This document shows positions 1 to 21,639 of a DNA stretch of 64,000 nucleotides, piece after piece; positions within the stretch are counted from its first letter, which is position 1, and each line of letters starts with the position of its first letter. Source of the stretch: a virus; IMG/VR virus record IMGVR_UViG_3300007640_000027; one strand, 5' to 3'. A program made the position numbers and the translations under genes. The notes under the pieces are model-generated. The model saw only the letters and a program-made list of their open reading frames with translations, made no database searches and was not told the origin of the DNA.

Positions 1-2
1 GT

Positions 3-3000
3 TAAAAATCCAGTTGTTGCATTATATGTTCCACCACTGGTATTATGTCCAATACCTCCACCAATGGTAACTCCCAATGAACAACATTCATTGGTCGGTG
101 ATTGAATGATGTTTCTGTGACCAGATCCAATAAATGAAAATCTTGCGTTTGTTATGTTACAATAACCACCACTAATTGTTGAATAATTACCTGATGCTGT
201 ATTACTAGTACCACCACCAACTGTTGAACTATATCCTGATGCTGTATTACTAAGACCACCACCAACTGTTGAATAATTACCTGATGCTGTATTACTAGTA
301 CCACCACCAACTGTTGAATAATATCCTGATGCTGTATTATTAAGACCACCACCAACAAATGAATAGTAACCTGATGCTGTATTACTATAACCACCACTAA
401 CTGTTGAATTACCACCTGATGCTGTATTACCACCACCACCAGCAACTGTTGAATATATATTTGATGCTGTATTATTTATACCACCACCAACTGTTGAATA
501 ACCACCAGTTGCACAGTTATTACACCCACCCGCAACAGATGAACATGTTCCACTCGCACATGATCCAGAACCCACTTCCAATCTACCTGAAACAACTTCA
601 AGTGTTGTTCCATTCCATGTTAAATTACTTTCTCCATTAAGAACTCCAGCAGTATTACTACCTGTTATTAATCTGTTATCGGCATTATTATTAATGGTCG
701 CAGCACCTGATGTACCAGATGAACCACTTGTACCACTACTACCTGAACTACCACTAGTACCATTTGTTCCACTTGTACCTGAAGACCCTGAACTACCTGA
801 GGTACCAGATGAACCTGAACTTCCGCTAGTTCCTGAAGAACCACTTGATCCTGAATTTCCTGACGTACCAGATGATCCACTTGATCCAGATGTACCTGAA
901 GAACCACTACTACCGCTAGTTCCTGATGAACCACTTGATCCTGAATTTCCTGACGTACCTGACGATCCACTTGATCCGCTAGTTCCTGAACTACCTGAAG
1001 ATCCAGATGTACCGCTAGTTCCTGATGATCCACTTGATCCTGAATTTCCTGACGTACCAGATGACCCTGAACTTCCACTAGTGCCCGATGATCCGCTTGA
1101 TCCTGAGGTTCCTGAACTACCAGATGATCCCGAATTTCCTGAAGTTCCACTACTACCTGAACTACCAGATGAACCCGATGTACCACTAGAACCCGATGAT
1201 CCTGATGTTCCAGACGAACCTGACGTTCCACTTGATCCAGATGTACCTGATGATCCACTACTACCGCTAGTACCTGACGATCCTGAAGAACCACTAGTAC
1301 CCGAACTTCCTGATGATCCAGATGTACCGCTTGATCCTGATGTACCACTACTACCACTTGAACCTGATGTTCCTGAACTACCTGAAGATCCTGAAGTACC
1401 GCTAGTACCTGAAGATCCGCTTGATCCGCTAGTTCCTGATGAACCTGATGATCCACTTGTTCCACTTGAACCAGAACTTCCTGATGTTCCGCTTGTTCCT
1501 GATGACCCAGAAGTACCGCTAGTACCTGAAGTACCACTTGAACCAGAACTTCCGCTAGTCCCTGAACTTCCACTTGATCCAGATGTACCAGACGAACCTG
1601 ATGATCCTGATGTGCCGCTTGTTCCTGATGACCCAGAAGTACCGCTAGTACCTGAAGATCCACTAGAACCTGACGTACCTGAAGAACCACTTGATCCTGA
1701 ATTTCCCGATGTACCCGAAGATCCAGAACTTCCGCTAGTTCCCGAAGTACCAGACGATCCTGAGGAACCACTAGTACCCGAACTTCCGCTAGAACCTGAG
1801 GTTCCACTACTTCCTGATGAACCACTAGATCCTGATGTTCCAGATGAACCTGAACTACCGCTAGTACCATTTGTTCCACTCGTACCTGACGACCCTGAAG
1901 TTCCTGATGTACCTGACGAACCGCTAGTACCTGAAGATCCACTTGAACCTGAAGTACCCGATGATCCTGAACTACCTGAAGTACCACTAGTACCTGATGA
2001 CCCTGATGATCCACTAGTTCCTGAAGAACCGCTTGATCCTGATGTACCTGATGATCCGCTTGAACCCGAACTTCCGCTAGTTCCTGAACTACCAGATGAT
2101 CCACTTGAACCTGAAGTACCAGATGATCCTGAACTACCACTAGAACCTGATGATCCACTCGTTCCCGAACTACCTGAAGATCCACTTGTTCCACTTGTTC
2201 CACTATCACCACTTACTCCACTAGTACCACTTGATCCAGAAGTACCTGATGATCCACTTGTACCTGAAGACCCTGAACTACCTGAAGTTCCAGAAGATCC
2301 TGACGAACCACTAGAACCTGAAGTACCAGATGATCCGCTAGATCCCGAAGAACCTGATGTTCCAGATGAACCTGAACTTCCTGATGTTCCGCTTGTACCT
2401 GACGATCCACTAGTACCGCTAGTTCCACTTGAACCAGAACTTCCGCTAGTCCCTGAAGATCCGCTTGATCCTGAAGTACCGCTAGATCCTGAACTTCCAC
2501 TTGAACCTGATGTTCCGCTACTTCCGCTTGATCCTGATGTGCCTGAAGAACCTGAAGTTCCGCTTGAACCTGAAGAACCACTCGTACCCGAACTTCCTGA
2601 TGATCCACTAGTTCCTGAACTACCACTAGAACCTGATGAACCACTAGTTCCGCTAGATCCTGAACTTCCACTTGAACCAGATGTTCCGCTAGATCCTGAA
2701 CTTCCACTTGAACCAGATGTTCCGCTACTACCGCTTGATCCTGATGTACCATTCGTACCCGAAGATCCACTACTACCGCTTGACCCAGATGTACCTGAAG
2801 ATCCTGATGATCCACTAGTACCCGAACTTCCACTTGATCCTGAAGTCCCTGATGTACCACTCAAAGTTAAATTATCACGAGTAACAACATTACCAGATCC
2901 ATCAACCAATAAAATATCAATTTCAGTTGTTCCCGATGGAACATCACCAATAGCTAACTTACCCGTTATCTCAATATCACCATATAATTGTTTCAGTTTC

Positions 3001-3026
3001 TTGGAACCACCTGTAGTTGCACTCAT
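3..3026 (-). CDS. Gly-Ser/Thr collagen-like fibre protein with YadA/Hep_Hag-like head repeats (3'-partial, runs off window)
   Basis: Absent from the ORF track because it has no stop in the window. Hand translation from ATG 3026 gives MSATTGGSKKLKQLYGDIEITGKLAIGDVPSGTTEIDILLVDGSGNVVTRD, then about 239 G-[S/T]-S triplets, then NNADNRLITG...NGESNLTWNGTTL, then 15-aa GGGxxNTASGxYSTV repeats. A TATTTAT motif lies about 19 nt upstream. Confidence 0.85.
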   Translation of the reverse strand, partial: MSATTGGSKKLKQLYGDIEITGKLAIGDVPSGTTEIDILLVDGSGNVVTRDNLTLSGTSGTSGSSGSSGTSGSSGSSGTSGSSGSSGSSGTNGTSGSSGSSGTSGSSGSSGSSGTSGSSGSSGSSGTSGSSGSSGSSGTSGSSGSSGTSGSSGSSGTSGSSGTSGSSGSSGTSGSSGSSGSSGTSGSSGSSGTSGSSGSSGTSGTSGSSGTSGTSGSSGSSGTSGSSGSSGSSGTSGSSGSSGSSGTSGSSGSSGTSGSSGTSGSSGTSGVSGDSGTSGTSGSSGSSGTSGSSGSSGSSGSSGTSGSSGSSGSSGTSGSSGSSGSSGTSGSSGSSGTSGSSGSSGTSGTSGSSGSSGTSGSSGSSGTSGSSGTSGTSGSSGTSGTNGTSGSSGSSGTSGSSGSSGSSGTSGSSGSSGTSGSSGSSGTSGTSGSSGSSGTSGNSGSSGSSGTSGSSGSSGTSGTSGSSGTSGTSGSSGSSGTSGSSGSSGTSGSSGSSGTSGTSGTSGSSGTSGTSGSSGSSGTSGSSGSSGTSGSSGSSGTSGTSGSSGSSGTSGSSGSSGTSGSSGTSGSSGSSGTSGSSGSSGTSGSSGSSGTSGSSGTSGSSGTSGSSGSSGTSGSSGSSGSSGTSGNSGSSGSSGTSGSSGSSGTSGSSGSSGTSGNSGSSGSSGTSGTSGSSGSSGTSGSSGSSGTSGNSGSSGSSGTSGSSGSSGTSGSSGSSGTSGNSGSSGSSGTSGSSGSSGTSGSSGSSGTSGTNGTSGSSGSSGTSGSSGTSGAATINNNADNRLITGSNTAGVLNGESNLTWNGTTLEVVSGRLEVGSGSCASGTCSSVAGGCNNCATGGYSTVGGGINNTASNIYSTVAGGGGNTASGGNSTVSGGYSNTASGYYSFVGGGLNNTASGYYSTVGGGTSNTASGNYSTVGGGLSNTASGYSSTVGGGTSNTASGNYSTISGGYCNITNARFSFIGSGHRNIIQSPTNECCSLGVTIGGGIGHNTSGGTYNATTGFL
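150..540 (-). repeat. About 45-nt tandem coding repeats (GGGxxNTASGxYSTV), trimeric-autotransporter head (YadA/Hep_Hag)-like
   Basis: Repeated ccaccaccaactgttgaata...cctgatgctgtattac units on the + strand, 15-aa period on the minus strand. Confidence 0.75.
705..2858 (-). repeat. 9-nt-period coding repeat, about 239 Gly-(Ser/Thr)-Ser triplets
   Basis: Gly at every third residue from 2858 to 705, with rare substitutions such as GVSGDS near 2212 and GTN. Confidence 0.95.
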
Positions 3027-3044
3027 GTTTCAAATATTTTTAAT

Positions 3045-3053
3045 TATAAATAT
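3045..3053 (-). promoter_or_regulatory. ATATTTATA upstream motif, putative phage (late) promoter
   Basis: Lies 18 nt upstream of ATG 3026. The same core recurs before many genes in the window. Confidence 0.55.
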
Positions 3054-3062
3054 ATCTTTATT

Positions 3063-4685
3063 TTAATTTCCCCTTAATTTAAACCCAATTTCTTTTCCTT
3101 GTTTCAATTTTTTTGGACGCTTGGTTACCAAATCATTTGTTAAGTTTAATTCAATAGGGTTACCTCTAAAAAAAACTGATGAATTTTTTGTTCCTCTAGC
3201 AAGAAATCTCATTTTAAACTGATTACCTACTGATTCAAAAATATAAGTATTACCAAAACCAGGATGTTTCTCCCAAGTTTCACCATTATTATTACTAACA
3301 AATAAAACACCTTTACCTGTAGGTGTTTCAAAATAATTTGAGGTATCTAAAATCTCAACTTTGGTTATGTTGCTCTGATCTGATAATTGAAAGTCTGTTG
3401 TTGTAAATTCCCATTCTTCTTGTAATACAGGTGGTGTATCATTACTCCAAACTGAAAACGCGTATCCATCATAACCATAACCCGTATTTAACCAAAATTT
3501 AATACCTGAAGGTGAAATTATACTTTTAAAAGTTTGGCCATAAGAAGACGACCATGGATTATTTTGATAAGTTCTAATACCATCATTAGGTACATACGCA
3601 ACCATACCTGTTGTTCTGTCTACAAATCCAGTAGTAACACTACCTCCCCATCCTCTGTCACCGAGTAAATAAACAACATCGTGTTCTTCAACACCACCCA
3701 ATCTAAAATATCCATTACCAATAAAATAAGGATATTCATTACTATGATATTCAGGAGTGTTTATTGGTAAAATTTTAGTAGGTACGTTAGTATAGTTGTT
3801 ATCGTTTGGATTTAAAACACATTTAGTTATATCTATATAACCTATCCTATAATAGGATCCAACAAAAATTCTATTCCTATCTCTAGGATCAATATGTACA
3901 CCTTGAACTCTTACTGCATTACTACCCATTCCTGCACTACTAAGATTAAGTGCTCTCGCTACGGCTTCTGTATCTGATGATGCATTTGTAACTACTATTA
4001 ACCCTGCACCATCGGATCTACATCCCATATATATTCTATCGGTTTGTTCGTCGTATTGAACCCAACCATACCTTAATCCTGTTATATATGAAGAAATTGT
4101 TAGGGTTTCTGATTCTTGGGTGATTACATTCCAACGAAACACACCTGAAGAAGTTCTGTCATCAGGCATAATATATAACCAGTCACCTGCAAATGCCAAA
4201 CCATTCATATATGAATCACCAACCTCATCTGAAGGCAAACCACTTGCTGATTCGGTAATAATAGTTTTTGTTGGTTGATTTGACCAATCACCATCAAAGT
4301 CATACTTTGTTAAATTATCATATACAAAATTTCCAATAATGGCAATTTTTCTTTTTTTGTTTATTGCAAGTGAACTATAATACTCATAATTATTAACAGG
4401 TCTAAATTCACTAAATTCTTCAGAAAGTACACCTTCGTCATTAATTGAGTGTACGGCAAAACCATCACCCCACCCCATGGAAATTATATATTCTTCATCA
4501 ATTTGATAACCATCAGGATATCCAATAACGCTATCACCATTACCCGATCTTCTATGTATATCATTACTCATATGTGATTTTAATTCAGGTACCACATAAA
4601 AAGCACCACCATAAAATGAGACCACACAGTTAGAAATACTTGATATCTGATTTGTATTTGATAATTTAAATGATTCTGTTTTCAT
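3063..4685 (-). CDS. Predicted beta-propeller virion/receptor-binding protein, paralogue A
   Basis: 540 aa, beta-strand and aromatic rich, Asp-box-like FVSNNNGETW. Clearly paralogous to 4687..6309 (ISMGWGDGFAVHSI, LPSDEVG.SY.NGLAFAGDWLYI). Confidence 0.6.
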   Translation of the reverse strand: MKTESFKLSNTNQISSISNCVVSFYGGAFYVVPELKSHMSNDIHRRSGNGDSVIGYPDGYQIDEEYIISMGWGDGFAVHSINDEGVLSEEFSEFRPVNNYEYYSSLAINKKRKIAIIGNFVYDNLTKYDFDGDWSNQPTKTIITESASGLPSDEVGDSYMNGLAFAGDWLYIMPDDRTSSGVFRWNVITQESETLTISSYITGLRYGWVQYDEQTDRIYMGCRSDGAGLIVVTNASSDTEAVARALNLSSAGMGSNAVRVQGVHIDPRDRNRIFVGSYYRIGYIDITKCVLNPNDNNYTNVPTKILPINTPEYHSNEYPYFIGNGYFRLGGVEEHDVVYLLGDRGWGGSVTTGFVDRTTGMVAYVPNDGIRTYQNNPWSSSYGQTFKSIISPSGIKFWLNTGYGYDGYAFSVWSNDTPPVLQEEWEFTTTDFQLSDQSNITKVEILDTSNYFETPTGKGVLFVSNNNGETWEKHPGFGNTYIFESVGNQFKMRFLARGTKNSSVFFRGNPIELNLTNDLVTKRPKKLKQGKEIGFKLRGN

Positions 4686-4686
4686 A

Positions 4687-6309
4687 TTAAAATCTACTAC
4701 TTTTCAGTTTAAAACCTTTTGTCCTATGGATTCTATTTTTTATGGTCTTATTAACTCTATCATTGTTTAAATGAAAAATAAATGATTCACCCACGATAAA
4801 TGGTGATGTATTATTTAAACCACTGGCAACAAACTTGATTTTAACTGAATTACCTTCACTTTCAAATTCGTGAACTTTATCTAAAACATTACCATAAGTT
4901 TCCCACGTTGAACCGTTGTTATTTGTTACATAAAAATTACAACTCGTGTTTGTAGGTATAGTTAAATTCAAAGTATCAGATATAATTATCTGAGTTACAT
5001 TTTCGTTATTATCTAACATATGTATTGAAGTTTCAAACTCCCAACTATTTTGTAAAACAGGTGAAATATTACTTGGCCACACAGTAAAACTATTACCATC
5101 ACCACCCCAACCAGTACCCAACCAATATTTTGTATTATTTGGCGAATAAATTGCCTTCCAAGTATAAGAATATTCAGAACCAACATTATTGTGATCTTGT
5201 TTTGAACTCGGTGAATTTGGAATAAATGCACATTTTCCTGATTCTTGATCAAAAAAACCAGTGGTCACATCTTGACCATATCCTCTGTCTCCTACTAAAT
5301 AAAGCATATCTAATTCTTCTATTCCGTATATACCCCATAAACCAGCACCTATAAACCACGGAGAATTATTATACATATAATCAGGTGTACCAGGAGGAAC
5401 CAACTTAACAGGTATATTTGTATAATTTTGATCAGAAGGATCTAAAATACAGTTAGTTATATCTATTTTACCCATACGGTAACTTGATCCTACCCAAATA
5501 TGATTTCTATTATTTGGATCGTGATAAACACCTGGAACTCTATTTGTTCTTTGTCCTAAAGATGAATGATTAATTGAACGAGCAACTGCTTCCAAATCTG
5601 ATGATGCATCGGTAACAACTAATAAACCCACATTACTACCATAATCACCCATATATATTCTATCTGTTTGCTCATCGTATTGTACCCAACCGTATTGTAG
5701 ACCCGTAGAATATGATGCAACGGTTAATGTTTCAGTCGTTTCAGTTACAACATTCCATCTAAAAACACCTGTTGTTGTTTTATCATCAGGCACAATATAT
5801 AACCAATCGCCAGCAAAAGCCAATCCATTTGCATATGAATAACCAACTTCATCAGATGGTAAATTATTTGAAGATTCAGTCATAACCGTTTTTGTTGGTT
5901 GATTTTCCCAATCTTCACTAAAATCATACTTTGTTAAATTATCATAAACATAATTTCCCACAATTGCAATTTTTCTTGTTTTATTTACCGCAATTGATGT
6001 ATAGTTTTGATAACCATTTGCCGGTCTTAAGTCGTAGTATACTTCTGAAATTGTTCCATTATCCGCAATAGAATGAACAGCAAAACCATCACCCCATCCC
6101 ACTGAAATTATATATTCATTATCAATGTGAAAACCATCAGGATAGGCCATTACATTATCACCATAACCGTTTCTTCTACTGGTGTAGTTACTTAAGTTAG
6201 TTTGTAATTCAGGTAAAGCATAAAAGTTACTACCATAAGTTGAGATAACGCAATTAGTAACATCTGAAATTTGTGAAGTTGTTGTTATTTTAAAACTTTT
6301 AGTCGCCAT
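4687..6309 (-). CDS. Predicted beta-propeller virion/receptor-binding protein, paralogue B
   Basis: 540 aa, colinear with 3063..4685, YVTNNNGSTW motif, basic C-terminus ending GFKL. Confidence 0.6.
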   Translation of the reverse strand: MATKSFKITTTSQISDVTNCVISTYGSNFYALPELQTNLSNYTSRRNGYGDNVMAYPDGFHIDNEYIISVGWGDGFAVHSIADNGTISEVYYDLRPANGYQNYTSIAVNKTRKIAIVGNYVYDNLTKYDFSEDWENQPTKTVMTESSNNLPSDEVGYSYANGLAFAGDWLYIVPDDKTTTGVFRWNVVTETTETLTVASYSTGLQYGWVQYDEQTDRIYMGDYGSNVGLLVVTDASSDLEAVARSINHSSLGQRTNRVPGVYHDPNNRNHIWVGSSYRMGKIDITNCILDPSDQNYTNIPVKLVPPGTPDYMYNNSPWFIGAGLWGIYGIEELDMLYLVGDRGYGQDVTTGFFDQESGKCAFIPNSPSSKQDHNNVGSEYSYTWKAIYSPNNTKYWLGTGWGGDGNSFTVWPSNISPVLQNSWEFETSIHMLDNNENVTQIIISDTLNLTIPTNTSCNFYVTNNNGSTWETYGNVLDKVHEFESEGNSVKIKFVASGLNNTSPFIVGESFIFHLNNDRVNKTIKNRIHRTKGFKLKSSRF

Positions 6310-6475
6310 TATTTTGAATCTCCATTATTATGGTTTCCAAATCGTGCCTTAATCTATTAAGTTCTTCTTCATGAACGTATTTTAACATATTACGATCAGG
6401 ATGATTATTTAACATATCTTCAATCTCTTGAATCATGCTCTCTATATTTTCTTTTCTTTCAAGCAATGAATCCAT
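6299..6475 (-). CDS. Small coiled-coil protein (58 aa)
   Basis: Hand translation MDSLLERKENIESMIQEIEDMLNNHPDRNMLKYVHEEELNRLRHDLETIIMEIQNNGD*. It fills the gap and overlaps the next ATG, and is below the track length cut-off. Confidence 0.65.
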   Translation of the reverse strand: MDSLLERKENIESMIQEIEDMLNNHPDRNMLKYVHEEELNRLRHDLETIIMEIQNNGD

Positions 6476-6499: not shown

Positions 6500-9400
6500 T
6501 TAAGTTCTTACGTTACTATATATCCAGAATTGATGGTATTTGTCTGCATCTGCTTCAGGAACTAAATAGAAATACGATTCATCTAATCCTGTATAGATTG
6601 TAGTCGCACTACCTTCATTTAATCCTCCAAGAGTTGTTGCCGCGTCTTTTTTAATTGTAATATTTAACAATCTGTTGTCATCTGGAAGATCATAAGTTAT
6701 CCAATAACCTTCAACACTTTGATCTACATTCATATTTGTAACATCAGCAATTGTTCCACTAACAACTACGCTACTTGAAATTGGTGATCCGTAAACACCT
6801 GTCTTGATCGGATAAACTTTATAATATATAGTCGCGTTTTTATTGAATGTATCATCAACAATTGACATTGTTGTTGCGATATCATCACTCTTAACTAAAC
6901 CAACTAAATTCCAATCTGTAGTAGTTCCAACTGAAGACCATACTTCATATCTATCAATATCTGAAGTACCACTTTCATCAAATTGGACTAATACTTCATC
7001 ACCTGTTTGAGTCAATGTTAATGTTGAAGGTGCTGTTGGACCATTTGGTGTTATAAATGGTAATGTTAATACTGTACCATCATAAGTTGCGTTAGATTCA
7101 ACCGTACCACCACTAGTTGCAGCATTATATGTAATAATACCATCATTTGTTGTTCCACTAAGAAGTATTAAACCTGAAGTACCTGATGAACCCGAAGATC
7201 CACTTGTACCTGATGAACCACTACTTCCGCTAGATCCACTCGTTCCCGAACTTCCTGAAGAACCTGATGTTCCTGAAGATCCTGACGAACCACTAGAACC
7301 CGACGTACCTGAACTACCAGACGATCCTGACGTTCCACTACTACCACTTGAACCTGATGTTCCTGAACTTCCTGAAGATCCAGATGTCCCACTAGTTCCT
7401 GAAGATCCTGAAGTACCAGATGATCCGCTAGATCCTGATGAACCCGAAGAACCTGATGTTCCTGAACTACCTGAAGAACCAGATGTTCCGCTAGTACCAC
7501 TTGAACCTGATGTTCCTGAAGTACCTGATGAACCCGAAGAACCTGATGTTCCTGAAGTACCTGATGAACCACTAGATCCTGACGTACCACTACTACCACT
7601 TGATCCTGATGTTCCTGAACTACCTGAAGTACCAGATGAACCACTAGATCCTGATGTACCACTACTACCACTTGAACCTGATGTTCCGCTAGTACCCGAT
7701 GATCCGCTTGTACCTGACGATCCACTAGTTCCTGAACTACCAGAACTTCCCGATGATCCACTAGTACCTGAAGTACCACTTGAACCTGATGATCCTGAAG
7801 TACCGCTCGTTCCTGATGTTCCTGAAGATCCAGATGTTCCGCTAGTTCCTGATGATCCTGAAGTACCGCTGGTTCCCGAAGAACCTGACGACCCTGATGA
7901 ACCTGAAGTTCCGCTAGACCCACTACTACCACTAGTACCTGATGAACCACTAGATCCTGAACTACCACTAGTTCCTGAAGAACCTGATGTACCGCTTGCA
8001 CCGCTTACACCTGAACTACCTGATGATCCTGATGAACCGCTTGTTCCGCTTGACCCTGAACTACCACTAGTACCAGATGAACCTGAACTTCCGCTAGTAC
8101 CTGACGATCCACTTGAACCCGATGTACCTGAAGTTCCGCTAGACCCACTACTTCCCGATGATCCGCTAGTACCTGAACTACCACTACTACCGCTAGTACC
8201 TGACGATCCTGACGACCCACTTGATCCAGATGTACCTGACGAACCTGATGATCCACTAGTTCCTGAAGAACCTGAAGAACCGCTTGTTCCTGATGTTCCA
8301 CTTGTACCCGAAGATCCTGATGTTCCTGACGTACCACTAGAACCAGAACTTCCTGATGATCCTGAACTACCGCTAGTACCTGAAGAACCGCTTGATCCCG
8401 AAGAACCTGATGTTCCACTACTACCGCTTGATCCTGATGTACCACTAGTACCAGAAGAACCTGAAGTACCGCTTGTTCCCGAACTACCACTAGTACCTGA
8501 AGATCCACTACTACCACTAGTACCTGATGACCCACTTGAACCACTACTACCTGAAGTACCAGACGAACCTGAACTACCAGATGATCCACTTGTTCCTGAA
8601 CTACCTGAAGTACCACTACTTCCACTAGAACCAGAGGTTCCACTTGATCCTGAAGATCCACTAGTTCCTGATGTACCACTTGAACCTGAGGTACCGCTCG
8701 TTCCCGACGAACCTGATGAACCACTAGTTCCACTTGAACCTGATGATCCGCTTGTTCCACTACTACCACTTGAACCTGAGGTACCACTAGATCCTGATGA
8801 CCCCGAAGAACCTGAACTTCCTGATGACCCTGATGTTCCGCTTGAACCTGATGTTCCTGAACTACCACTACTACCGCTAGTTCCCGAAGTACCAGATGAA
8901 CCTGAAGTTCCAGAAGTTCCACTGTCACCACTCACACCACTAGTCCCTGAAGATCCACTTGATCCCGAACTACCTGATGACCCTGATGTTCCGCTTGAAC
9001 CTGATGTTCCTGAACTACCACTACTACCGCTAGATCCCGAAGAACCACTACTACCTGAACTACCAGACGTACCTGATGTTCCACTGCTTCCGCTAGTTCC
9101 TGATGAACCACTTGACCCTGAAGATCCTGAAGTACCACTAGAACCAGAACTTCCTGATGTACCACTTGAACCAGAAGAACCTGACGTTCCGCTTGTACCT
9201 GAACTTCCAGATGTACCAGATGTACCAGATGAACCTGAGGTACCGCTCGTTCCTGAACTACCTGATGATCCTGATGTTCCGCTTGAACCACTGCTTCCAC
9301 TGGTACCCGACGAACCAGATGACCCTGAAGAACCGCTAGATCCCGAACTACCCGATGATCCACTCGTTCCTGATGTGCCTGATGAACCAGATGTTCCACT

Positions 9401-12400
9401 AGTACCTGAAGAACCAGAACTTCCTGATGATCCACTAGTTCCTGAACTACCCGAACTACCGCTTGATCCTGAAGTTCCTGATGACCCGCTTGAACCTGAC
9501 GTTCCACTAGTACCTGAAGAACCAGAACTTCCTGATGATCCACTAGTTCCTGAACTACCCGAAGAACCTGAGGTTCCGCTTGTACCAGACGATCCACTAG
9601 TTCCTGAACTACCCGAAGAACCTGAGGTTCCGCTTGTACCAGACGATCCACTAGTACCTGAAGATCCACTTGAACCACTACTTCCACTGGTACCCGACGA
9701 CCCACTTGAACCTGAAGAACCAGAACTTCCTGATGATCCACTAGTTCCTGAACTACCGCTTGAACCACTTGATCCTGATGTACCACTAGTACCAGAAGAA
9801 CCTGAGGTACCGCTAGACCCTGAAGAACCACTGCTTCCACTAGTTCCCGATGAACCTGATGATCCGCTAGTACCTGAACTTCCACTAGAACCTGAAGAAC
9901 CTGAGGTACCGCTTGTACCTGAACTACCTGATGATCCCGAAGAACCACTAGTACCACTTGACCCTGAACTTCCTGATGTCCCTGAAGTACCACTACTACC
10001 GCTAGTACCCGAGGTACCGGCTGAACCTGATGACCCGCTTGAACCCGATGTTCCACTAGATCCACTACTACCGCTAGACCCTGAAGAACCTGACGTTCCA
10101 CTTGTACCAGATGAACCACTAGAACCTGAGGTTCCACTGCTTCCTGACGAACCTGATGTACCACTACTACCGCTAGATCCCGAAGAACCAGAACTTCCGC
10201 TAGTACCTGAAGATCCACTTGTTCCTGAAGTTCCACTTACACCACTAACTCCTGAAGATCCACTACTTCCTGAGGAACCTGATGACCCTGACGAACCTGA
10301 TGTACCTGAACTACCAGACGTTCCTGAAGTTCCACTACTTCCACTAGTACCTGAAGACCCACTTGATCCCGATGTACCAGACGAACCTGATGATCCACTA
10401 GATCCTGAACTACCACTAGTTCCTGAAGAACCTGAAGATCCGCTTGATCCCGAAGAACCTGATGTTCCGCTTGTACCTGACGATCCACTAGTACCAGATG
10501 ATCCTGAACTACCGCTAGTGCCTGAAGACCCTGAAGACCCGCTAGTTCCTGAAGTTCCACTACTACCACTAGTACCTGACGTACCTGCCGAACCAGATGA
10601 ACCTGAGGTACCACTACTTCCGCTTGATCCTGATGTACCTGATGATCCTGAACTACCGCTAGTACCTGAGGTACCGGCTGAACCTGATGACCCACTTGAA
10701 CCCGATGTTCCACTTGATCCACTACTACCTGAAGTACCAGACGAACCTGAACTACCAGATGACCCACTTGAACCCGAAGATCCTGAAGTACCGCTTGTAC
10801 CCGAACTTCCTGATGTACCGCTTGATCCACTCGTTCCTGATGTACCGCTTGATCCCGAAGAACCTGATGTTCCAGATGACCCTGAACTTCCTGATGTACC
10901 AGATGACCCACTACTACCTGAAGTACCCGATGAACCTGAGGTTCCGCTTGTACCAGACGATCCGCTAGTACCTGAAGATCCACTACTTCCTGACGAACCC
11001 GAACTACCGCTTGATCCTGAAGTTCCTGACGTTCCACTTGAACCAGAAGAACCTGAAGTACCCGATGAACCCGAAGATCCTGAACTTCCTGATGTTCCAC
11101 TACTACCACTAGAACCTGAACTACCCGAAGTACCTGACGTACCAGAAGAACCAGATGTTCCGCTTGTACCTGAACTACCACTAGAACCTGAAGTACCGCT
11201 TGTGCCAGATGAACCTGATGTTCCACTACTACCACTAGACCCTGAAGTACCGCTAGATCCTGAAGAACCAGAACTTCCTGAAGTTCCACTACTACCACTA
11301 GACCCTGAAGTACCGCTAGATCCCGAACTTCCACTAGAACCTGAAGAACCTGAGGTACCGCTAGATCCTGATGACCCGCTTGAACCTGACGTTCCACTTG
11401 ACCCTGAAGTACCGCTAGATCCTGAAGAACCAGAACTACCACTACTTCCTGATGTACCTGATGAACCGCTAGAACCTGAAGTACCGCTTGTGCCAGATGA
11501 ACCTGATGTACCGGACGAACCTGAAGATCCGCTTGTTCCTGAAGTACCACTAGATCCTGACGTTCCACTAGAACCTGATGATCCAGAAGTACCTGACGTA
11601 CCACTACTACCGCTAGTACCTGAGGTGCCACTTGATCCACTCGTTCCTGAAGAACCTGATGATCCACTTGAACCAGAACTTCCCGAAGATCCTGAACTAC
11701 CAGATGACCCACTCGTTCCTGACGTACCTGATGAACCACTAGTTCCAGATGATCCTGAACTACCACTGGTTCCCGAACTTCCTGAAGAACCTGATGTTCC
11801 ACTACTACCGCTAGTACCTGAGGTACCGGCTGAACCTGATGATCCAGAAGAACCGCTAGTTCCACTTGAACCCGAACTACCTGATGAACCGCTAGTTCCA
11901 CTAGTACCTGAACTTCCCGAAGAACCTGATGTTCCGCTACTACCACTTGACCCACTTGTTCCTGACGTACCTGATGAACCACTAGTTCCACTACTACCGC
12001 TAGTACCTGAAGTACCGGATGAACCACTTGATCCTGAACTACCAGACGAACCAGATGTACCGCTCGTTCCCGAACTTCCACTAGTACCTGATGATCCAGA
12101 AGAACCGCTAGTTCCACTTGAACCACTACTACCTGAAGATCCTGACGAACCTGATGTACCTGAACTACCAGACGAACCAGATGTACCGCTCGTTCCCGAA
12201 CTTCCACTAGTACCTGATGATCCAGAAGAACCTGATGTACCTGAACTACCAGATGTTCCACTAGTACCTGAAGATCCACTTGAACCCGAACTACCTGATG
12301 AACCACTCGTTCCAGATGATCCTGAACTACCACTGGTTCCCGAACTTCCTGAAGAACCTGATGTTCCACTTGATCCTGAACTACCAGACGAACCAGATGT

Positions 12401-15304
12401 ACCGCTCGTTCCCGAACTTCCACTAGTACCTGATGATCCAGAAGTACCTGATGTACCACTACTTCCCGAACTTCCACTGCTACCGCTAGTACCCGAGGTA
12501 CCGGCTGAACCTGATGACCCGCTACTTCCACTAGTACCTGAAGATCCTGATGTTCCACTTGACCCTGAACTTCCTGATGTACCACTTGAACCAGAACTTC
12601 CCGAAGATCCTGAACTACCACTAGTACCTGATGACCCGCTACTTCCACTAGTACCTGAAGATCCTGATGTACCACTTGAACCTGAACTACCTGAAGATCC
12701 TGATGTACCAGATGATCCCGAAGAACCGCTTGAACCAGATGAACCTGACGTACCACTACTACCACTAGAACCTGATGTTCCTGAAGATCCAGATGATCCC
12801 GAACTTCCTGATGATCCTGAAGTACCACTACTTCCACTAGTTCCCGATGAACCTGATGTACCAGATGATCCACTACTACCACTTGATCCTGAAGAACCAC
12901 TACTACCACTAGTTCCTGAAGATCCACTAGTACCACTAGCACCACTTACACCTGAACTACCTGATGATCCTGAAGAACCACTAGTACCCGAACTTCCGCT
13001 AGAACCTGAGGTACCGCTTGTTCCTGAAGAACCTGATGATCCACTTGAACCAGAACTTCCCGAAGATCCTGATGTTCCTGACGTACCACTAGTACCTGAT
13101 GACCCACTTGAACCACTGCTACCTGACGTACCTGAAGAACCAGATGTTCCGCTAGTTCCTGATGATCCTGAAGTACCACTAGAACCAGAACTTCCTGATG
13201 AACCGCTTGATCCCGAAGAACCTGATGTTCCACTGCTTCCACTAGTTCCTGATGAACCCGAAGAACCGCTAGTTCCTGAAGTACCTGATGAACCGGAAGA
13301 TCCACTTGATCCTGATGTACCACTTGACCCTGAGGTACCGCTTGTTCCTGATGAACCTGACGTTCCACTACTACCGCTACTTCCACTTGAACCTGATGAC
13401 CCACTAGAACCAGATGTACCGCTAGTTCCCGAACTTCCACTAGTACCAGATGATCCTGATGTACCAGACGAACCTGAACTACCACTTGACCCTGAGGAAC
13501 CAGAACTTCCTGAAGTGCCTGATGTACCACTTGATCCACTACTACCACTTGATCCCGAAGAACCGCTAGAACCAGAACTACCCGATGACCCACTTGTTCC
13601 GCTACTTCCTGATGTACCAGACGAACCTGATGATCCTGAACTACCACTTGAACCTGAGGTGCCGCTTGTTCCGCTGCTTCCACTAGAACCTGATGTACCT
13701 GAGGTTCCACTACTGCCCGAAGTACCAGACGAACCACTACTTCCGCTAGAACCAGATGAACCTGACGATCCACTTGATCCTGATGTACCACTAGAACCTG
13801 AAGTTCCTGACGTGCCACTACTACCGCTAGTACCCGAGGTACCGGCTGAACCTGATGATCCAGAAGAACCGCTAGTTCCACTTGAACCACTACTACCTGA
13901 AGTTCCTGACGAACCACTCGTTCCTGATGTACCAGATGAACCTGATGATCCGCTACTTCCACTAGAACCTGATGTTCCCGAAGATCCACTAGAACCTGAG
14001 GTGCCGCTTGTTCCTGAAGAACCTGATGATCCGCTAGATCCACTTGAACCTGACGTACCACTAGTTCCCGATGAACCTGAAGATCCTGATGTTCCTGAAG
14101 TTCCACTACTTCCCGAACTTCCACTGCTACCGCTAGTACCCGAGGTACCGGCTGAACCTGAGGATCCAGAACTTCCTGAAGTACCTGATGTTCCACTTGA
14201 ACCTGAGGTGCCGCTTGTTCCTGAAGATCCACTAGTACCTGATGATCCTGACGACCCTGATGAACCTGAACTTCCCGAAGAACCAGATGTACCACTACTT
14301 CCTGAACTTCCACTACTTCCAGAAGAACCTGACGAACCACTCGTTCCTGATGTACCAGATGAACCTGACGTACCACTAGTACCAGAAGAACCGCTAGATC
14401 CCGAACTACCTGATGTACCACTTGAACCTGAACTACCACTAGAACCACTTGATCCTGAAGATCCTGACGTACCACTACTACCGCTAGTACCTGAGGTACC
14501 GGCTGAACCTGATGATCCTGAACTACCACTAGAACCACTTGAACCTGAAGAACCCGAAGTTCCACTACTACCAGATGATCCTGATGTTCCACTACTTCCA
14601 CTAGTTCCTGAAGTACCGGATGAACCACTACTCCCGCTAGAACCTGAAGTTCCTGAAGAACCTGACGTGCCACTAGATCCTGATGTTCCTGAACTACCTG
14701 AGGATCCTGATGTACCACTTGATCCCGAACTTCCTGATGATCCTGAAGTACCGGATGAACCACTAGAACCAGATGTACCGCTAGTTCCCGAACTTCCACT
14801 AGTACCTGATGTACCGCTAGAACCTGAAGATCCCGATGTACCGCTAGTTCCTGAACTTCCACTTGAACCTGAGGTACCGCTTGTTCCTGAAGATCCACTT
14901 GTACCAGAACTACCTGAAGAACCGCTAGAACCAGAACTACCTGAAGATCCTGAAGTTCCACTAGTACCAGATGAACCACTTGTTCCCGACGAACCTGAAG
15001 ATCCTGAAGTTCCAGATGACCCACTACTTCCCGAAGAACCTGAAGTTCCGCTTGATCCCGAAGATCCACTTGTTCCTGAAGTCGCAGCCGCGGTTTTTCT
15101 CTCAACTCTTGATGTAGACTCATTCCACACCAAAACTTCATTAGAAGTACCCGTAGGTACGTCATAGATAGTTAATGTATCTTGAATATAGACATCACCA
15201 CTAAAAGTTATTGTTCCTCCTGTAGCAATTCTTACACGATTAGTGCTATTCGTGTTAAAAAGTAATCCTTCGTTCTGACTATAATATATTCCGTCGTTGG
15301 CCAT
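6500..15304 (-). CDS. Giant Gly-Ser/Thr collagen-like fibre protein with C-terminal FN3-like domains (2934 aa)
   Basis: About 75-aa N-terminal module, then about 2635 aa of G-X-S triplets, then PTAPSTLTLT...YEVWSS...YYKVYP and a second FN3-like beta-sandwich. Confidence 0.85.
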   Translation of the reverse strand: MANDGIYYSQNEGLLFNTNSTNRVRIATGGTITFSGDVYIQDTLTIYDVPTGTSNEVLVWNESTSRVERKTAAATSGTSGSSGSSGTSGSSGSSGSSGTSGSSGSSGTSGSSGTSGTSGSSGSSGSSGSSGSSGTSGSSGTSGTSGSSGSSGTSGTSGSSGSSGTSGTSGSSGTSGTSGSSGSSGTSGSSGSSGSSGTSGSSGSSGTSGSSGTSGSSGTSGSSGSSGSSGTSGTSGSSGTSGSSGSSGTSGSSGSSGSSGSSGSSGSAGTSGTSGSSGTSGSSGSSGSSGSSGSSGTSGSSGSSGSSGTSGTSGSSGTSGTSGSSGSSGSSGSSGSSGTSGSSGSSGSSGSSGSSGTSGSSGTSGTSGSSGTSGTSGSSGSSGSAGTSGTSGSSGSSGSSGTSGTSGSSGSSGTSGTSGSSGSSGSSGSSGTSGTSGSSGSSGTSGSSGSSGSSGSSGTSGTSGSSGTSGSSGSSGTSGSSGSSGSAGTSGTSGSSGTSGTSGSSGTSGSSGSSGSSGSSGSSGSSGTSGSSGTSGTSGSSGSSGTSGTSGSSGSSGSSGSSGTSGSSGTSGSSGSSGSSGSSGSSGSSGSSGTSGTSGSSGSSGSSGSSGSSGTSGSSGTSGSSGTSGTSGSSGSSGSSGSSGSSGTSGSSGTSGTSGSSGTSGSSGSSGSSGTSGTSGSSGSSGTSGSSGTSGSSGSSGSSGSSGSSGTSGSSGTSGTSGSSGTSGSSGSSGSSGTSGTSGTSGSSGSSGSSGSSGSSGTSGTSGSSGSSGTSGSSGSSGSSGVSGASGTSGSSGTSGSSGSSGSSGSSGSSGTSGSSGTSGSSGTSGSSGSSGSSGSSGTSGSSGSSGTSGSSGSSGSSGSSGTSGSSGSSGSSGTSGSSGTSGSSGSSGTSGSSGSSGSSGSSGTSGSSGSSGTSGSSGTSGSSGSSGSAGTSGTSGSSGSSGSSGTSGTSGSSGTSGSSGTSGTSGSSGSSGSSGTSGSSGSSGTSGSSGSSGTSGSSGSSGSSGSSGTSGTSGSSGTSGSSGSSGTSGSSGTSGTSGSSGSSGTSGSSGSSGSSGSSGTSGSSGSSGTSGSSGTSGTSGSSGSSGSSGSSGTSGTSGSSGTSGSSGTSGTSGSSGSSGTSGSSGSSGTSGTSGSSGSSGSSGTSGSSGSSGSAGTSGTSGSSGTSGSSGSSGTSGSSGSSGTSGSSGTSGTSGSSGSSGSSGSSGSSGSSGSSGTSGSSGTSGTSGSSGTSGTSGSSGSSGTSGSSGTSGTSGSSGSSGTSGSSGTSGTSGSSGSSGTSGSSGSSGSSGSSGTSGSSGTSGSSGSSGSSGTSGSSGSSGSSGSSGTSGSSGSSGTSGSSGSSGSSGTSGSSGSSGTSGSSGTSGTSGSSGSSGTSGTSGSSGTSGTSGSSGSSGSSGTSGSSGSSGSSGTSGSSGSSGTSGTSGSSGSSGSSGSSGSSGTSGSSGTSGTSGSSGTSGSSGSSGTSGSSGSSGTSGSSGSSGTSGTSGSSGTSGSSGTSGTSGSSGSSGSSGSSGSSGTSGSSGSSGTSGSSGSSGSAGTSGTSGSSGSSGTSGSSGSSGTSGSSGSAGTSGTSGSSGTSGTSGSSGSSGTSGSSGSSGTSGSSGTSGTSGSSGSSGSSGSSGTSGSSGSSGSSGSSGTSGSSGSSGTSGSSGTSGTSGSSGTSGSSGSSGSSGSSGSSGVSGVSGTSGTSGSSGTSGSSGSSGSSGSSGTSGSSGSSGTSGSSGSSGTSGTSGSSGSSGSSGSSGTSGSSGSSGSAGTSGTSGSSGTSGTSGSSGSSGTSGSSGSSGSSGTSGTSGSSGSSGSSGTSGSSGSSGTSGSSGSSGSSGTSGSSGTSGTSGSSGSSGSSGTSGSSGSSGSSGSSGSSGTSGSSGSSGSSGTSGSSGTSGTSGSSGSSGTSGSSGTSGTSGSSGSSGTSGSSGSSGSSGTSGTSGSSGSSGTSGSSGSSGSSGTSGSSGSSGSSGTSGTSGSSGTSGTSGSSGSSGSSGSSGSSGSSGTSGSSGSSGTSGSSGSSGTSGTSGSSGTSGTSGSSGTSGTSGSSGSSGTSGSSGSSGTSGSSGSSGSSGTSGSSGTSGTSGSSGSSGSSGSSGSSGSSGTSGSSGTSGSSGSSGSSGSSGTSGVSGDSGTSGTSGSSGTSGTSGSSGSSGTSGSSGTSGSSGSSGSSGSSGSSGTSGSSGSSGTSGSSGSSGTSGSSGSSGTSGTSGSSGTSGTSGSSGSSGTSGSSGSSGTSGSSGTSGSSGSSGSSGTSGSSGSSGSSGTSGSSGSSGTSGSSGTSGTSGSSGTSGTSGSSGSSGTSGSSGSSGSSGTSGSSGSSGSSGSSGTSGTSGSSGTSGTSGTSGSSGSSGTSGSSGSSGTSGSSGSSGSSGTSGSSGSSGTSGSSGSSGSSGTSGTSGSSGSSGTSGSSGSSGTSGSSGSSGTSGSSGSSGSSGVSGASGTSGSSGTSGSSGSSGSSGTSGSSGSSGTSGSSGSSGSSGTSGTSGSSGTSGTSGSSGTSGTSGTSGSSGSSGTSGTSGSSGSSGSSGTSGSSGTSGSSGTSGTSGSSGSSGTSGSSGSSGTSGSSGTSGSSGSSGTSGSSGSSGTSGTSGSSGSSGTSGTSGSSGTSGTSGSSGSSGTSGSSGSSGSSGSSGTSGSSGTSGTSGSSGSSGTSGSSGSSGTSGSSGSSGTSGSSGSSGSSGTSGSSGSSGTSGSSGSSGSSGTSGSSGSSGTSGLILLSGTTNDGIITYNAATSGGTVESNATYDGTVLTLPFITPNGPTAPSTLTLTQTGDEVLVQFDESGTSDIDRYEVWSSVGTTTDWNLVGLVKSDDIATTMSIVDDTFNKNATIYYKVYPIKTGVYGSPISSSVVVSGTIADVTNMNVDQSVEGYWITYDLPDDNRLLNITIKKDAATTLGGLNEGSATTIYTGLDESYFYLVPEADADKYHQFWIYSNVRT
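7172..15076 (-). repeat. About 878 uninterrupted Gly-(Ser/Thr)-Ser triplets
   Basis: First Gly at 15076 and last at 7172 give 7905 nt = 878 triplets + Gly. Synonymous codons are heavily mixed, with rare GSAG and GVSG landmarks. Confidence 0.95.
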
Positions 15305-15322
15305 CTTTAATTTTTTAGGCTA

Positions 15323-15345
15323 AAGGAGGGATTTTCTCCCTCCTT
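15323..15345 (-). promoter_or_regulatory. Perfect 9-bp hairpin in the leader of the giant fibre gene
   Basis: aaggaggga-ttttc-tccctcctt, located between the TATTTAT motif (15360-15368) and ATG 15304. The U tract is weak. Confidence 0.55.
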
Positions 15346-15359
15346 ATTTATTGGTTATT

Positions 15360-15368
15360 TATAAATAT
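15360..15368 (-). promoter_or_regulatory. ATATTTATA upstream motif
   Basis: Intergenic, 55 nt upstream of ATG 15304. Confidence 0.5.
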
Positions 15369-15408
15369 ATTGAACCTCAGTTGTAACATATTTTTTTAAC
15401 AAAAAAAA

Positions 15409-17856: not shown

Positions 17857-17901
17857 TTTTTTGTTTTTTTTGGTTTTAATTAATCCTTAATATAAAGGCT
17901 G

Positions 17902-19185: not shown

Positions 19186-19211
19186 TTTTCTATGTTAAAA
19201 AATTTGGCTAT

Positions 19212-19245
19212 AAATATGGTGGAAGTAAACACTCCCACCATATTT
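19212..19245 (-). terminator. Hairpin, likely intrinsic terminator, overlapping a TATTTAT motif
   Basis: Minus strand AAAUAUGGUGGGAGU-GUUU-ACUUCCACCAUAUUU. The single mismatch is G-U only on the minus strand, and it lies just downstream of stop 19258. ATATTTATA at 19209-19217 is 23 nt before ATG 19185. Confidence 0.65.
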
Positions 19246-19257
19246 TTAACTATAATA

Positions 19258-21612: not shown

Positions 21613-21639
21613 TTTTTTGTTTTTTTTAGCAGTTTATTT

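Follow-up and report, generated by a model that had tools for sequence, protein, structure and literature searches.

Phage proteins with collagen-like sequences were reportedly described by Smith et al. in 1998 under the name 'Bacteriophage collagen'. The stability of the triple helix is attributed to imino acids, charge pairs and hydration. Collagen-like fibres of phages and prophages include orf028 of P-SSM2 (PMC1079782) and EPclA-D of the E. coli O157:H7 prophages (PMC3368898), and collagen-like Gly-X-Y runs rich in Pro, Ser and Thr have been proposed to be tail fibres in marine myophages (PMC1079782). Known phage collagens are presumed to be trimeric; their triplets number from tens to a few hundred, and interruptions and some Pro or charge are usual.

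The gene reported here, P0001, lies in a window of 64,000 nucleotides (the whole stretch of viral DNA that was analysed). It encodes a phage collagen-like fibre of an unusual kind, with a proline-free and nearly charge-free shaft of 879 triplets. In contrast to the known phage collagens, the run is uninterrupted, holds no Pro and a single charged residue, and is built from two main triplet types. The longest unbroken run in the 58 long PF01391 proteins that we retrieved is 93 triplets, and nothing specific was found in the literature on GSS/GTS or proline-free phage collagens.

The gene and its triplet array

P0001 is a single open reading frame, in which an N-terminal anchor of 76 aa is followed by 879 Gly-X-Y triplets, a junction of 45 aa and a tandem FnIII tip. 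Its parts are as follows.

15305..15408, minus strand: upstream intergenic leader with an AT-rich TATTTAT-type motif and a 9-bp stem-loop, from reading of the sequence
6500..15304, minus strand: giant fibre gene P0001, a single ORF of 2,934 aa (~8.8 kb), from the ORF list and translation
15077..15304, minus strand: N-terminal anchor (aa 1-76), presumed virion-attachment domain by its similarity to neighbouring fibres
7166..15076, minus strand: collagen-like array of uninterrupted Gly-(Ser/Thr)-Ser triplets (aa 77-2713, 2,637 residues)
9537..9679, minus strand: recent 54-bp tandem unit in the array (TRF, 54-bp period, 98% matches)
7031..7165, minus strand: post-array junction (aa 2714-2758, ...LILLSGTTNDGIITYN...ESNATYDG...), candidate registration or trimerisation element
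6503..7030, minus strand: C-terminal tandem FnIII tip, ending ...KYHQFWIYSNVRT, from AF2 and Foldseek

Translation confirmed the preliminary description of an array with Gly at every third residue (879 of 879 triplets), without proline and made almost entirely of Gly, Ser and Thr. Its count of 878 triplets and 2635 residues was correct save for the terminal GLI triplet, our own figures being 879 and 2,637. The array is composed of 534 GSS, 328 GTS, 8 GSA, 5 GVS, 2 GAS, 1 GDS and 1 GLI triplets, and the 17 that are neither GSS nor GTS are scattered. Ser and Thr together make up 1,740 residues, Pro is absent and one Asp is the only charged residue. Thr was found 328 times at X and never at Y (Fisher p = 8e-116), Y being Ser in 870 of the 879 triplets (99%). 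The longest runs were of 3 GTS and 7 GSS, both below the smallest longest run across 1,000 shuffles (4 and 8, respectively), and autocorrelation of the Ser/Thr pattern showed no periodicity past lag 3. The gene is real, and the original observation holds.

At the DNA level, positions 1 and 2 of the 879 Gly codons are invariant and position 3 is T in 471, A in 351, G in 45 and C in 12, while Ser codons are drawn from both the TCN and the AGY families. In-register self-similarity of the array is ~66-67% at every offset, its 101-mers are all unique, and its longest exact repeat is 79 bp. A simple DNA repeat born of slippage was considered; the unique 101-mers, the ~67% self-identity and the diversity at Gly position 3 argue against it. 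The register of the shaft is maintained by purifying selection, so that the strict triplet register noted earlier is both real and selected, as seen in the unbroken run, the Gly codons and the X/Y asymmetry. Besides the 54-bp unit, no other recent large duplication was found in the array; the copy number of this unit varies between assemblies, and contig L012 is without six triplets, with a deletion at 9626..9679.

A foreign origin of the gene was rejected because its GC3 (0.144) and its codon preferences are native, the latter agreeing with those of neighbouring genes. A long plus-strand ORF at 9375..15167 was likewise rejected as a true gene, as it merely shadows the repeat; homologues exist for the two ends of P0001 outside the repeat, in the minus-strand frame. 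Directly ahead of the start codon, the 9-bp stem-loop (15323..15345) has a putative function.

An array without Pro or charge might also be a disordered, possibly mucin-like tether in which no triple helix forms; this is the main rival reading, and we consider it unlikely but well worth weighing. Hydrated random-coil or PPII-rich chains, perhaps densely O-glycosylated on the 1,740 Ser/Thr, would then serve as an entropic spacer or brush that displays the FnIII/propeller tip; the computed rms reach is only about 30-55 nm as a coil, and more if glycosylation stiffens the chain. GS-type sequences are the classic flexible linkers, and (GSS)n is in routine use as one. A linker, however, requires neither an exact Gly period over 2,637 residues nor an absolute X/Y asymmetry. 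Expansion of a 9-bp unit could keep the register, but ~67% identity means a long divergence, during which no Gly was lost. A structured Gly-X-Y helix is favoured because it predicts that X and Y are not equivalent, which a featureless linker does not, although the sequon of a modifying enzyme could also account for the asymmetry.

The preliminary description also proposed a PPII bundle. That the array folds back into a PPII/PGII helical bundle, possibly ice- or surface-binding, is most improbable. Gly at every third residue and small side chains fit PPII packing, a bundle of this type exists in a phage adhesin, and the beta-roll region of the sister fibre P0002 matches PF21300 (grass antifreeze beta roll), though outside its Gly-X-Y array. 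Known bundles, however, are made of short helices with defined turns or loops, and a defined bundle is unlikely here because the 879 triplets run without interruption, hence without periodic turn-forming breaks, and without periodicity past lag 3; the modular fibre context favours an extended shaft. As for the ice- or mineral-binding polymer also put forward, nothing in the evidence points there.

Length of the array

As a triple helix, the shaft would measure 754 nm (2,637 residues x 0.286 nm), in agreement with the earlier estimate of ~750 nm. Its length was checked on independent contigs, which were reached via the genes neighbouring P0001; the contigs come from estuarine or brackish water samples. 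An independent assembly recovered 7,922 of the 8,805 nt of the gene (90%), with 13 mismatches and one 54-bp copy difference. The two contigs concerned, L008 and L012, both belong to one other sample and have no mutual overlap; they align to gene nt 1-3170 and aa 1334-2934, which supports at least 780 triplets. The full array is spanned solely by the window's own contig, and its central aa 1057-1333 have piecemeal coverage only in other contigs.

It is very unlikely that the array was inflated or mis-joined by assembly and that the true one is much shorter. Ten contigs from six other samples (seven assemblies) do end inside the array from either side, L009 and L016 fuse parts of the array that the window places 1.4-2.3 kb from each other, and coverage of the centre is piecemeal, all of which would fit such an artefact. 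Yet the longest exact repeat of 79 bp is shorter than the k = 141 of those assemblers and the 101-mers are all unique, L008 and L012 agree over at least 780 triplets with 13 mismatches in total, and the frame is open across 8.8 kb with a native GC3. Inflation had been named at the outset as what could refute the description: the independent assembly speaks against it for at least 780 triplets, the full span being seen on one contig only. L009 and L016 suggest strain variants, with alleles 160-250 triplets shorter, or else chimeric joins.

Such proteins are largely absent from protein databases because gene callers choose the shadow ORF on the opposite strand and assemblies break off within the array. 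This means that GSS/GTS fibres are an under-counted class there.

Ends of the fibre and genomic neighbourhood

The anchor, for which no Pfam match was found, shares 29% identity with P0004, a neighbouring fibre, at the N-terminus, and 33% with the second half of the N-terminus of P0002. Its MA-x-x-G-x-x-Y...TN...GG-x-I-x-F start is also present on a non-collagen fibre of 980 aa at the orthologous position in L006. The junction is related to that of P0002 and shares 45-52% identity with its counterparts behind the GTS/GSS arrays of unrelated viral contigs (L002, L004, L005); its pLDDT was only 57-76 in a monomer model, and Pfam recognised no trimerisation domain in P0001. At the C-terminus, the FN3 domains of the preliminary description proved to be a tandem FnIII pair (AF2 pLDDT 90.9), the best PDB matches by Foldseek being FnIII tandems of titin and fibronectin. 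This tip module was found in 335 representative clusters, a few residues from the C-terminal end in 150 of the 150 listed, and it is common to fibres of 163-3,511 aa with other shafts. In P0188, the same tip follows a conventional charged collagen shaft of the GQKGEVGAK type. Sequence comparison thus points to a modular tail-fibre build, with a conserved N-terminal attachment module and an exchangeable shaft and tip.

Beside the tip are found:

6299..6475, minus strand: P0143, a conserved acidic helical ORF of 58 aa between the tip-bearing fibre and the propeller gene
4687..6309, minus strand: P0015, a beta-propeller plus beta-sandwich of 540 aa (AF2), candidate distal partner or adhesin
3063..4685, minus strand: second 540-aa propeller, a paralogue with 55% identity to P0015
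3..3026, minus strand: sister collagen-like fibre P0002, truncated where the window ends; its GSS/GTS array at 699..2858 has 240 triplets

P0015, which has 63 homologues, was modelled as all-beta (AF2 pLDDT 88.6) and gave generic propeller matches, phage tail proteins included. Neither of the two 540-aa propeller genes had a Pfam, NCBIfam or PDB-sequence match; that they are glycosyltransferases (TibC/BAHT-like) was ruled out by their beta-propeller folds and the lack of a family match. Counterparts of P0143, of 48-58 aa, occupy the same position in L012, L019, L020/L021 and L022, and the succession of tip, ~55-aa helical ORF and ~540-aa beta-propeller is kept in synteny in five lineages. This cassette is a separate lead on the mounting of distal adhesins. 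Like the phage fibre context and the sister fibre with its trimerising chaperone, it goes beyond the preliminary description.

The array of the sister fibre matches PF01391 at E = 9e-102. In its full-length form (1,595 aa, L012:8227-13014), the protein carries PF13884 Peptidase_S74 (E = 1.8e-15) and UspA1-like repeats.

Upstream of P0001 and on the same strand are gp25 (E = 3.4e-11), Baseplate_J and RNR genes; P0001 adjoins gp25, Baseplate_J and a series of fibre genes that make up a tail/baseplate structural module. SprB repeats are present, and among cultured phages the nearest relatives are Flavobacterium myophages (28% identity). The source is a jumbo phage of at least ~237 kb, uncultured and with a contractile tail, whose hosts are Flavobacteriia-like Bacteroidota. 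No relatives in cultured phages were found for the FnIII tip or the propeller, and P0004 had only short matches (6-8% of the query).

A position on the capsid or neck, as a head fibre or whisker serving environmental adhesion or sensing and not receptor binding at the baseplate, is quite unlikely. The T4 whisker gene (wac) likewise follows baseplate genes, and neighbour genes of P0001 match a Hoc-like head decoration weakly (phrog_3945, E = 7e-5) and, below the Pfam cut-off, a phage cement protein. Head-fibre-like appendages are moreover documented in PTm1, a Tenacibaculum jumbo phage with a flavobacterial host (hair-like appendages; Kawato et al. 2020, as cited in a passage of PMC13282480). 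The cluster is nevertheless continuous from gp25 and Baseplate_J, the neighbouring fibres resemble tail fibres, and no similarity to the head fibre of any cultured phage was found.

The shaft may be O-glycosylated, as the preliminary description suggested. A scan of 33 window ORFs (30 of at least 135 aa and three smaller ones) gave no glycosyltransferase domain. In L002 and L005, shorter GTS/GSS fibres have GT1, GT2 and epimerase genes as neighbours, and other low-complexity Ser/Thr spacers are encoded by the same phage (a TPT-repeat protein at 23108..25549 and an 833-aa protein in L012); both observations would suit a disordered tether.

The tether reading and known systems

We give a probability of about one half to the reading that P0001 is a homotrimeric collagen-type tether, possibly glycosylated, with a distal adhesin. 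Three chains would be held together at the N-terminal anchor, be registered by the junction and zip up, into a triple helix of the collagen type or, at the least, a PPII thread of three chains, forming a thin flexible tether of up to ~0.75 micrometres. The FnIII pairs at its end may dock the propeller protein and so create the distal adhesin, in which the small helical protein may be an assembly factor or adaptor. Such a tether would catch host cells or polysaccharide-rich particles well past the length of the tail, ahead of the shorter fibres and the baseplate. As there is no proline and there are no charge pairs, the helix would be stabilised by hydration of the Ser/Thr hydroxyls, sheer length and end-clamping, with O-glycosylation by the phage's own sugar transferases as a further possible stabiliser.

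A trimer is suggested by the sister fibre, which has the same GSS/GTS chemistry, a related anchor and, at its end, the intramolecular trimerisation chaperone PF13884. It is also suggested by the presence of PF13884 in 18 of the 58 long GTS/GSS-rich PF01391 proteins, and by P0188, where the tip sits on a charged collagen shaft. This recurrence of GSS/GTS chemistry in proteins with trimerising chaperones counts against a disordered tether.

The known stabilisers of a triple helix (Pro/Hyp, charge pairs, Thr or Gln at Y; see PMC8968730) are absent from the array, which lacks Pro, has a single charged residue and carries Thr at X, not at Y. Register slippage (the gelation problem, PMC13138384) is possible in P0001 with its 879 near-identical triplets. 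A 200-aa slice of the array matched PDB collagens (E = 1e-125), with only the Gly positions contributing; it was rejected as a precedent for the repeat, as it reflects Gly periodicity only, 8zxl being a designed GAPGSQ collagen. FnIII domains are as a rule monomeric, and we know of no demonstrated triple helix that is free of both imino acids and charge.

It is doubtful that Gly-(Ser/Thr)-Ser alone makes a genuine collagen triple helix, with hydroxyl hydration or O-glycans as possible stabilisers, and a filament of 0.75 micrometres that jumbo phages would use as a long-range 'fishing line' with an FnIII-docked beta-propeller adhesin. If true, this would be the longest uninterrupted collagen-type domain known, and both its collagen chemistry and the scale of host capture by a phage would be new. 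A fibre several virion lengths long would call for revised encounter radii and adsorption estimates in dilute aquatic settings. For collagen science, such an array, lacking imino acids and charge pairs yet strongly selected, would test the minimal sequence requirement of the triple helix and is a possible, very simple recombinant scaffold.

Compared with known systems, the array resembles snow-flea antifreeze protein and gp38 of phage S16 in having Gly at every third position and small residues, but these are compact bundles of short helices with turns, and no turn signals are present in P0001. The T4 long tail fibres (gp34-gp37, gp38, gp57A) are alike in working logic, not by homology: the gene for a long trimeric shaft has as neighbours those for a small helical protein that aids assembly and for a separate distal protein, much like the P0001 cassette, and no sequence or fold relationship between the two was found. 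At ~145 nm, the T4 fibre is a rod of beta-structure and not a Gly-X-Y array. Streptococcal Scl1/Scl2 and other recombinant bacterial collagens form hydroxyproline-free triple helices nucleated by an adjacent trimerisation domain; they depend on charged/polar pairs and ~10% or more Pro (PMC8968730), whereas the P0001 array has neither. BclA, of the Bacillus anthracis/cereus exosporium, is Thr-rich and hydroxyproline-free like P0001 and forms surface filaments, its glycosylation being thought to aid stability (PMC8968730). BclA, however, has GPT-type triplets (Pro at X, Thr at Y as the site of glycosylation), and its C-terminal domain is trimeric and C1q/TNF-like, whereas P0001 has Thr only at X, Ser at Y, no Pro and a tandem FnIII C-terminus. 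With the collagen-like fibres of phages and prophages, P0001 shares Gly-X-Y runs within a modular fibre encoded with tail genes, and with those of the marine myophages it also shares X and Y positions rich in Ser and Thr.

A single ORF with an unbroken Gly-X-Y array

The ORF listing and translation give the giant collagen-like fibre protein P0001 as one ORF of 2,934 aa (window 6500..15304, minus strand), with a predicted mass of 240 kDa and a pI of 4.1. Features in and around this gene are:

15355-15372, minus strand: ATATATTTATAAATA motif, resembling TATTTAT, which precedes the stem-loop
15323-15345, minus strand: GC-rich 9-bp stem-loop in the 5′ leader, just ahead of the P0001 start codon
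7166..15076, minus strand: Gly-X-Y array, aa 77-2713, Gly at each third residue over 879 consecutive triplets
near 9537..9679, minus strand: 54-bp duplicated unit, the sole recent duplication inside the array
6299..6475, minus strand: 58-aa acidic helical ORF, directly after the P0001 gene

The preliminary description, which had about 878 triplets (2,635 residues), was off by one. Triplets were GSS (534), GTS (328), GSA (8), GVS (5), GAS (2), GDS (1) and GLI (1), with no proline and a single charged residue. Positions X and Y differed: all 328 Thr residues lay at X and none at Y (Fisher p = 8e-116), and Y was Ser in 870 of 879 triplets. GTS triplets were evenly spread, with a longest run of 3, as against 4 or more in 1,000 of 1,000 shuffles; the longest GSS run was 7, as against 8 or more, again in all 1,000 shuffles. 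We conclude that the triplet register and the X/Y asymmetry are under selection.

The array DNA is not a simple tandem repeat. Its 101-mers are all unique, its longest exact repeat is 79 bp, and all in-register self-alignments gave about 66-67% DNA identity. Despite this divergence, each of the 879 Gly codons has G at positions 1 and 2, position 3 being T (471), A (351), G (45) or C (12), and Ser codons are drawn from the TCN and AGY families alike. GC3 (0.144) and synonymous preferences are like those of neighbouring genes, so that it is amino-acid composition, not foreign DNA, that raises the GC of the array region.

A plus-strand ORF of 1,930 aa (9375..15167) was rejected as a true gene, being a shadow frame across the array; the minus-strand ORF, by contrast, has homologues to its non-repeat sequence at either end. 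On every partial contig (L008:12690-15722, L009, L010, L011, L016, L017) the public gene calls follow the antisense frame, and the exact 2,934-aa product was absent from a collection of 15 billion proteins. Protein databases therefore systematically undercount giant Gly-X-Y fibres.

Array length was compared in ten contigs from six other samples (seven assemblies), reached through neighbouring genes. In sample ERZ27275006, contig L008 matched nt 1-3170 of the gene with 2 mismatches, and contig L012 matched aa 1334-2934, with 11 mismatches and the loss of one block of 6 triplets within the 54-bp duplicate. The two matches do not overlap, so that 90% of the gene was independently reproduced. The central 277 aa were matched only as exact 60-mers, in contigs L009 and L016. 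Early in the array these strain variants are about 80-86% identical in DNA to the window; they then switch abruptly to near-identity with window positions that lie 1.4-2.3 kb further in (L009:11599-11954 and L016:14320-14507, compared with window 11545-12106), which suggests alleles 160-250 triplets shorter, inter-strain recombination, or chimeric assembly. The concern, already voiced in the preliminary description, that assembly had inflated the array was thus largely, though not fully, answered: at least 780 triplets were recovered in a second assembly, while all ten retrieved contigs end within the array, entering it from one side or the other. Gross inflation is very improbable.

Ends of the fibre and the propeller cassette

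The anchor of P0001 (first 76 aa) is 29% identical to the N-terminus of the neighbouring fibre P0004 and 33% to that of the sister fibre P0002. In L006, the closest viral contig, the orthologous position is taken by a non-collagen fibre of 980 aa that begins with a similar sequence, so the anchor is conserved and the shaft exchanged. Past the array, a junction of 45 residues (…LILLSGTTNDGIITYN…ESNATYDG…) is related to that of P0002, and is 45-52% identical to segments following GTS/GSS arrays in unrelated viral contigs (L002, L004, L005). The last 221 aa, in which FN3 domains had been noticed at the outset, were indeed predicted to fold as two FnIII domains (pLDDT 90.9, model from a 32-sequence alignment), with FnIII tandems as best PDB structural matches. 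This tip was found in 335 representative clusters, no more than a few residues from the C-terminal end in 150 of 150 among the matches listed. Its carriers are 163 to 3,511 aa long, and only 4 of the 152 examined have any Gly-X-Y run; one carrier, P0188, is a conventional charged collagen of GQKGEVGAK type.

After the 58-aa ORF come two paralogues of 540 aa, 55% identical, the cassette genes spanning window 3063-6475 (minus strand). Their family has 63 homologues and gave no Pfam, NCBIfam or PDB-sequence match. The model of the 540-aa protein (pLDDT 88.6) is a beta-propeller plus a beta-sandwich, with only generic propellers, phage tail proteins among them, as structural matches; a glycosyltransferase role was rejected on account of this predicted fold. 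Five independent lineages have a fibre that ends in the FnIII x2 '...KYHQFW...' tip with a propeller gene directly behind it, and in four of them an acidic helical ORF of 48-58 aa lies between the two genes:

Lineage 1, window and L012
Lineage 2, L019: 2,440-aa non-collagen fibre
Lineage 3, L020/L021: 911-aa fibre
Lineage 4, L022: Chengkuizengella axinellae (Bacillota) genome contig, Laminin_G_3 genes next
Lineage 5, L018: 1,447-aa fibre

The FnIII tip may dock the propeller protein, and the small helical protein could be an assembly factor or an adaptor.

A fibre module rich in Ser/Thr spacers

All window genes lie on the minus strand. Genes for a DnaB-like helicase, a flap endonuclease, ribonucleotide reductase, gp25 and Baseplate_J are found upstream of the fibre genes, and gp25/Baseplate_J are followed by a 28-kb run of large fibre-like genes. 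Flavobacterium myophages are the closest cultured relatives, at 28% identity in Baseplate_J, and a 484-kb uncultured phage stands alongside them; one neighbouring gene carries SprB repeats, a Bacteroidota signature. No tRNA gene was found within the window. Together, the two long ERZ27275006 contigs (138.7 kb and 98.4 kb) put the genome size at ~237 kb or more. Anchoring of P0001 on the capsid or neck, instead of the baseplate, is a less likely possibility; weak Hoc and cement matches in genes nearby would favour it, as would the head hairs described on one flavobacterial jumbo phage (Kawato et al. 2020, cited in PMC13282480). Other fibre-module genes are:

23108-25549, minus strand: Thr-Pro repeat protein, 813 aa, TPT/TQT-type repeats
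15409-23040, minus strand: four paralogous fibre genes (815, 427, 784 and 466 aa)
3..3026, minus strand: sister fibre P0002, cut by the window end, 240 triplets (141 GSS, 88 GTS)

The four fibres have shuffled internal repeat modules in common (28-57% identity), and two of them have a precomputed PF26696 PTL_trimer match at the C-terminus; judged by sequence, they are a family of recombining paralogues. In the 813-aa protein, about 500 central residues form a mucin-like linker flanked by small folded ends. A second TPT/TQT-type spacer protein, of 833 aa, follows the sister fibre (L012:13016-15517). The phage's fibre module therefore holds several kinds of Ser/Thr-rich low-complexity spacer.

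The full-length sister fibre (L012:8227-13014, 1,595 aa) continues past its triplets with UspA1-like/beta-roll repeats and a C-terminal PF13884 Peptidase_S74 domain (57.4 bits; cut-off 22), the intramolecular chaperone of trimeric phage fibres. Its Cys-rich GGxxNTASG 15-aa repeats match UspA1_rep and PF21300 'grass antifreeze beta roll' (E = 1.4e-11). The latter, the sole ice-binding-like signal observed, probably reflects no more than a general likeness among beta-rolls.

In a set of 58 long PF01391 proteins obtained with the array as query, GTS and GSS were the commonest triplets, Pro was rare, Thr favoured X (1,465 at X versus 509 at Y), and 18 carried PF13884. Trimeric phage fibres thus commonly contain Pro-poor G-T/S-S segments. 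The longest unbroken run in this set was 93 triplets, about one tenth of that in P0001.

Conformation of the array

The best-supported reading, to which we give a probability of about one half, is that P0001 is a homotrimeric collagen-type thread tethering a distal FnIII/propeller adhesin to the virion. It rests on the selected register and X/Y asymmetry, on the trimer chaperone of the sister fibre, and on the presence of the same FnIII tip on a classical collagen shaft. The computed triple-helix length, 754 nm, agrees with the earlier estimate of about 750 nm. Against a trimer, the array is devoid of all known triple-helix stabilisers, no recognised trimerisation domain was found in P0001, and a repeat without register signals risks mis-staggered chains (PMC13138384).

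The main rival, a tentative one, is a disordered tether, perhaps glycosylated; the computed rms reach of the array as a random coil is 31-55 nm. Glycosylation of P0001 is plausible. None of the window ORFs scanned has a glycosyltransferase domain; short GTS/GSS fibres (636-693 aa) with a P0001-type junction, in L002:5153-12075 and L005:6355-13807, are flanked by GT1, GT2 and UDP-GlcNAc 2-epimerase genes. The absence of turn signals from the array makes the PPII bundle put forward in the preliminary description unlikely, and no supporting evidence was found for the ice- or mineral-binding polymer suggested there.

Concerning known systems, bacterial collagens have Thr at Y (PMC8968730), whereas P0001 has it at X, a difference that also counts against the trimeric thread. 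No paper on giant GSS/GTS fibres was found in the literature searched. Phage collagen-like fibres are already known (Smith et al. 1998; PMC1079782; PMC3368898), and among them the P0001 gene is real, and extreme in both length and chemistry.
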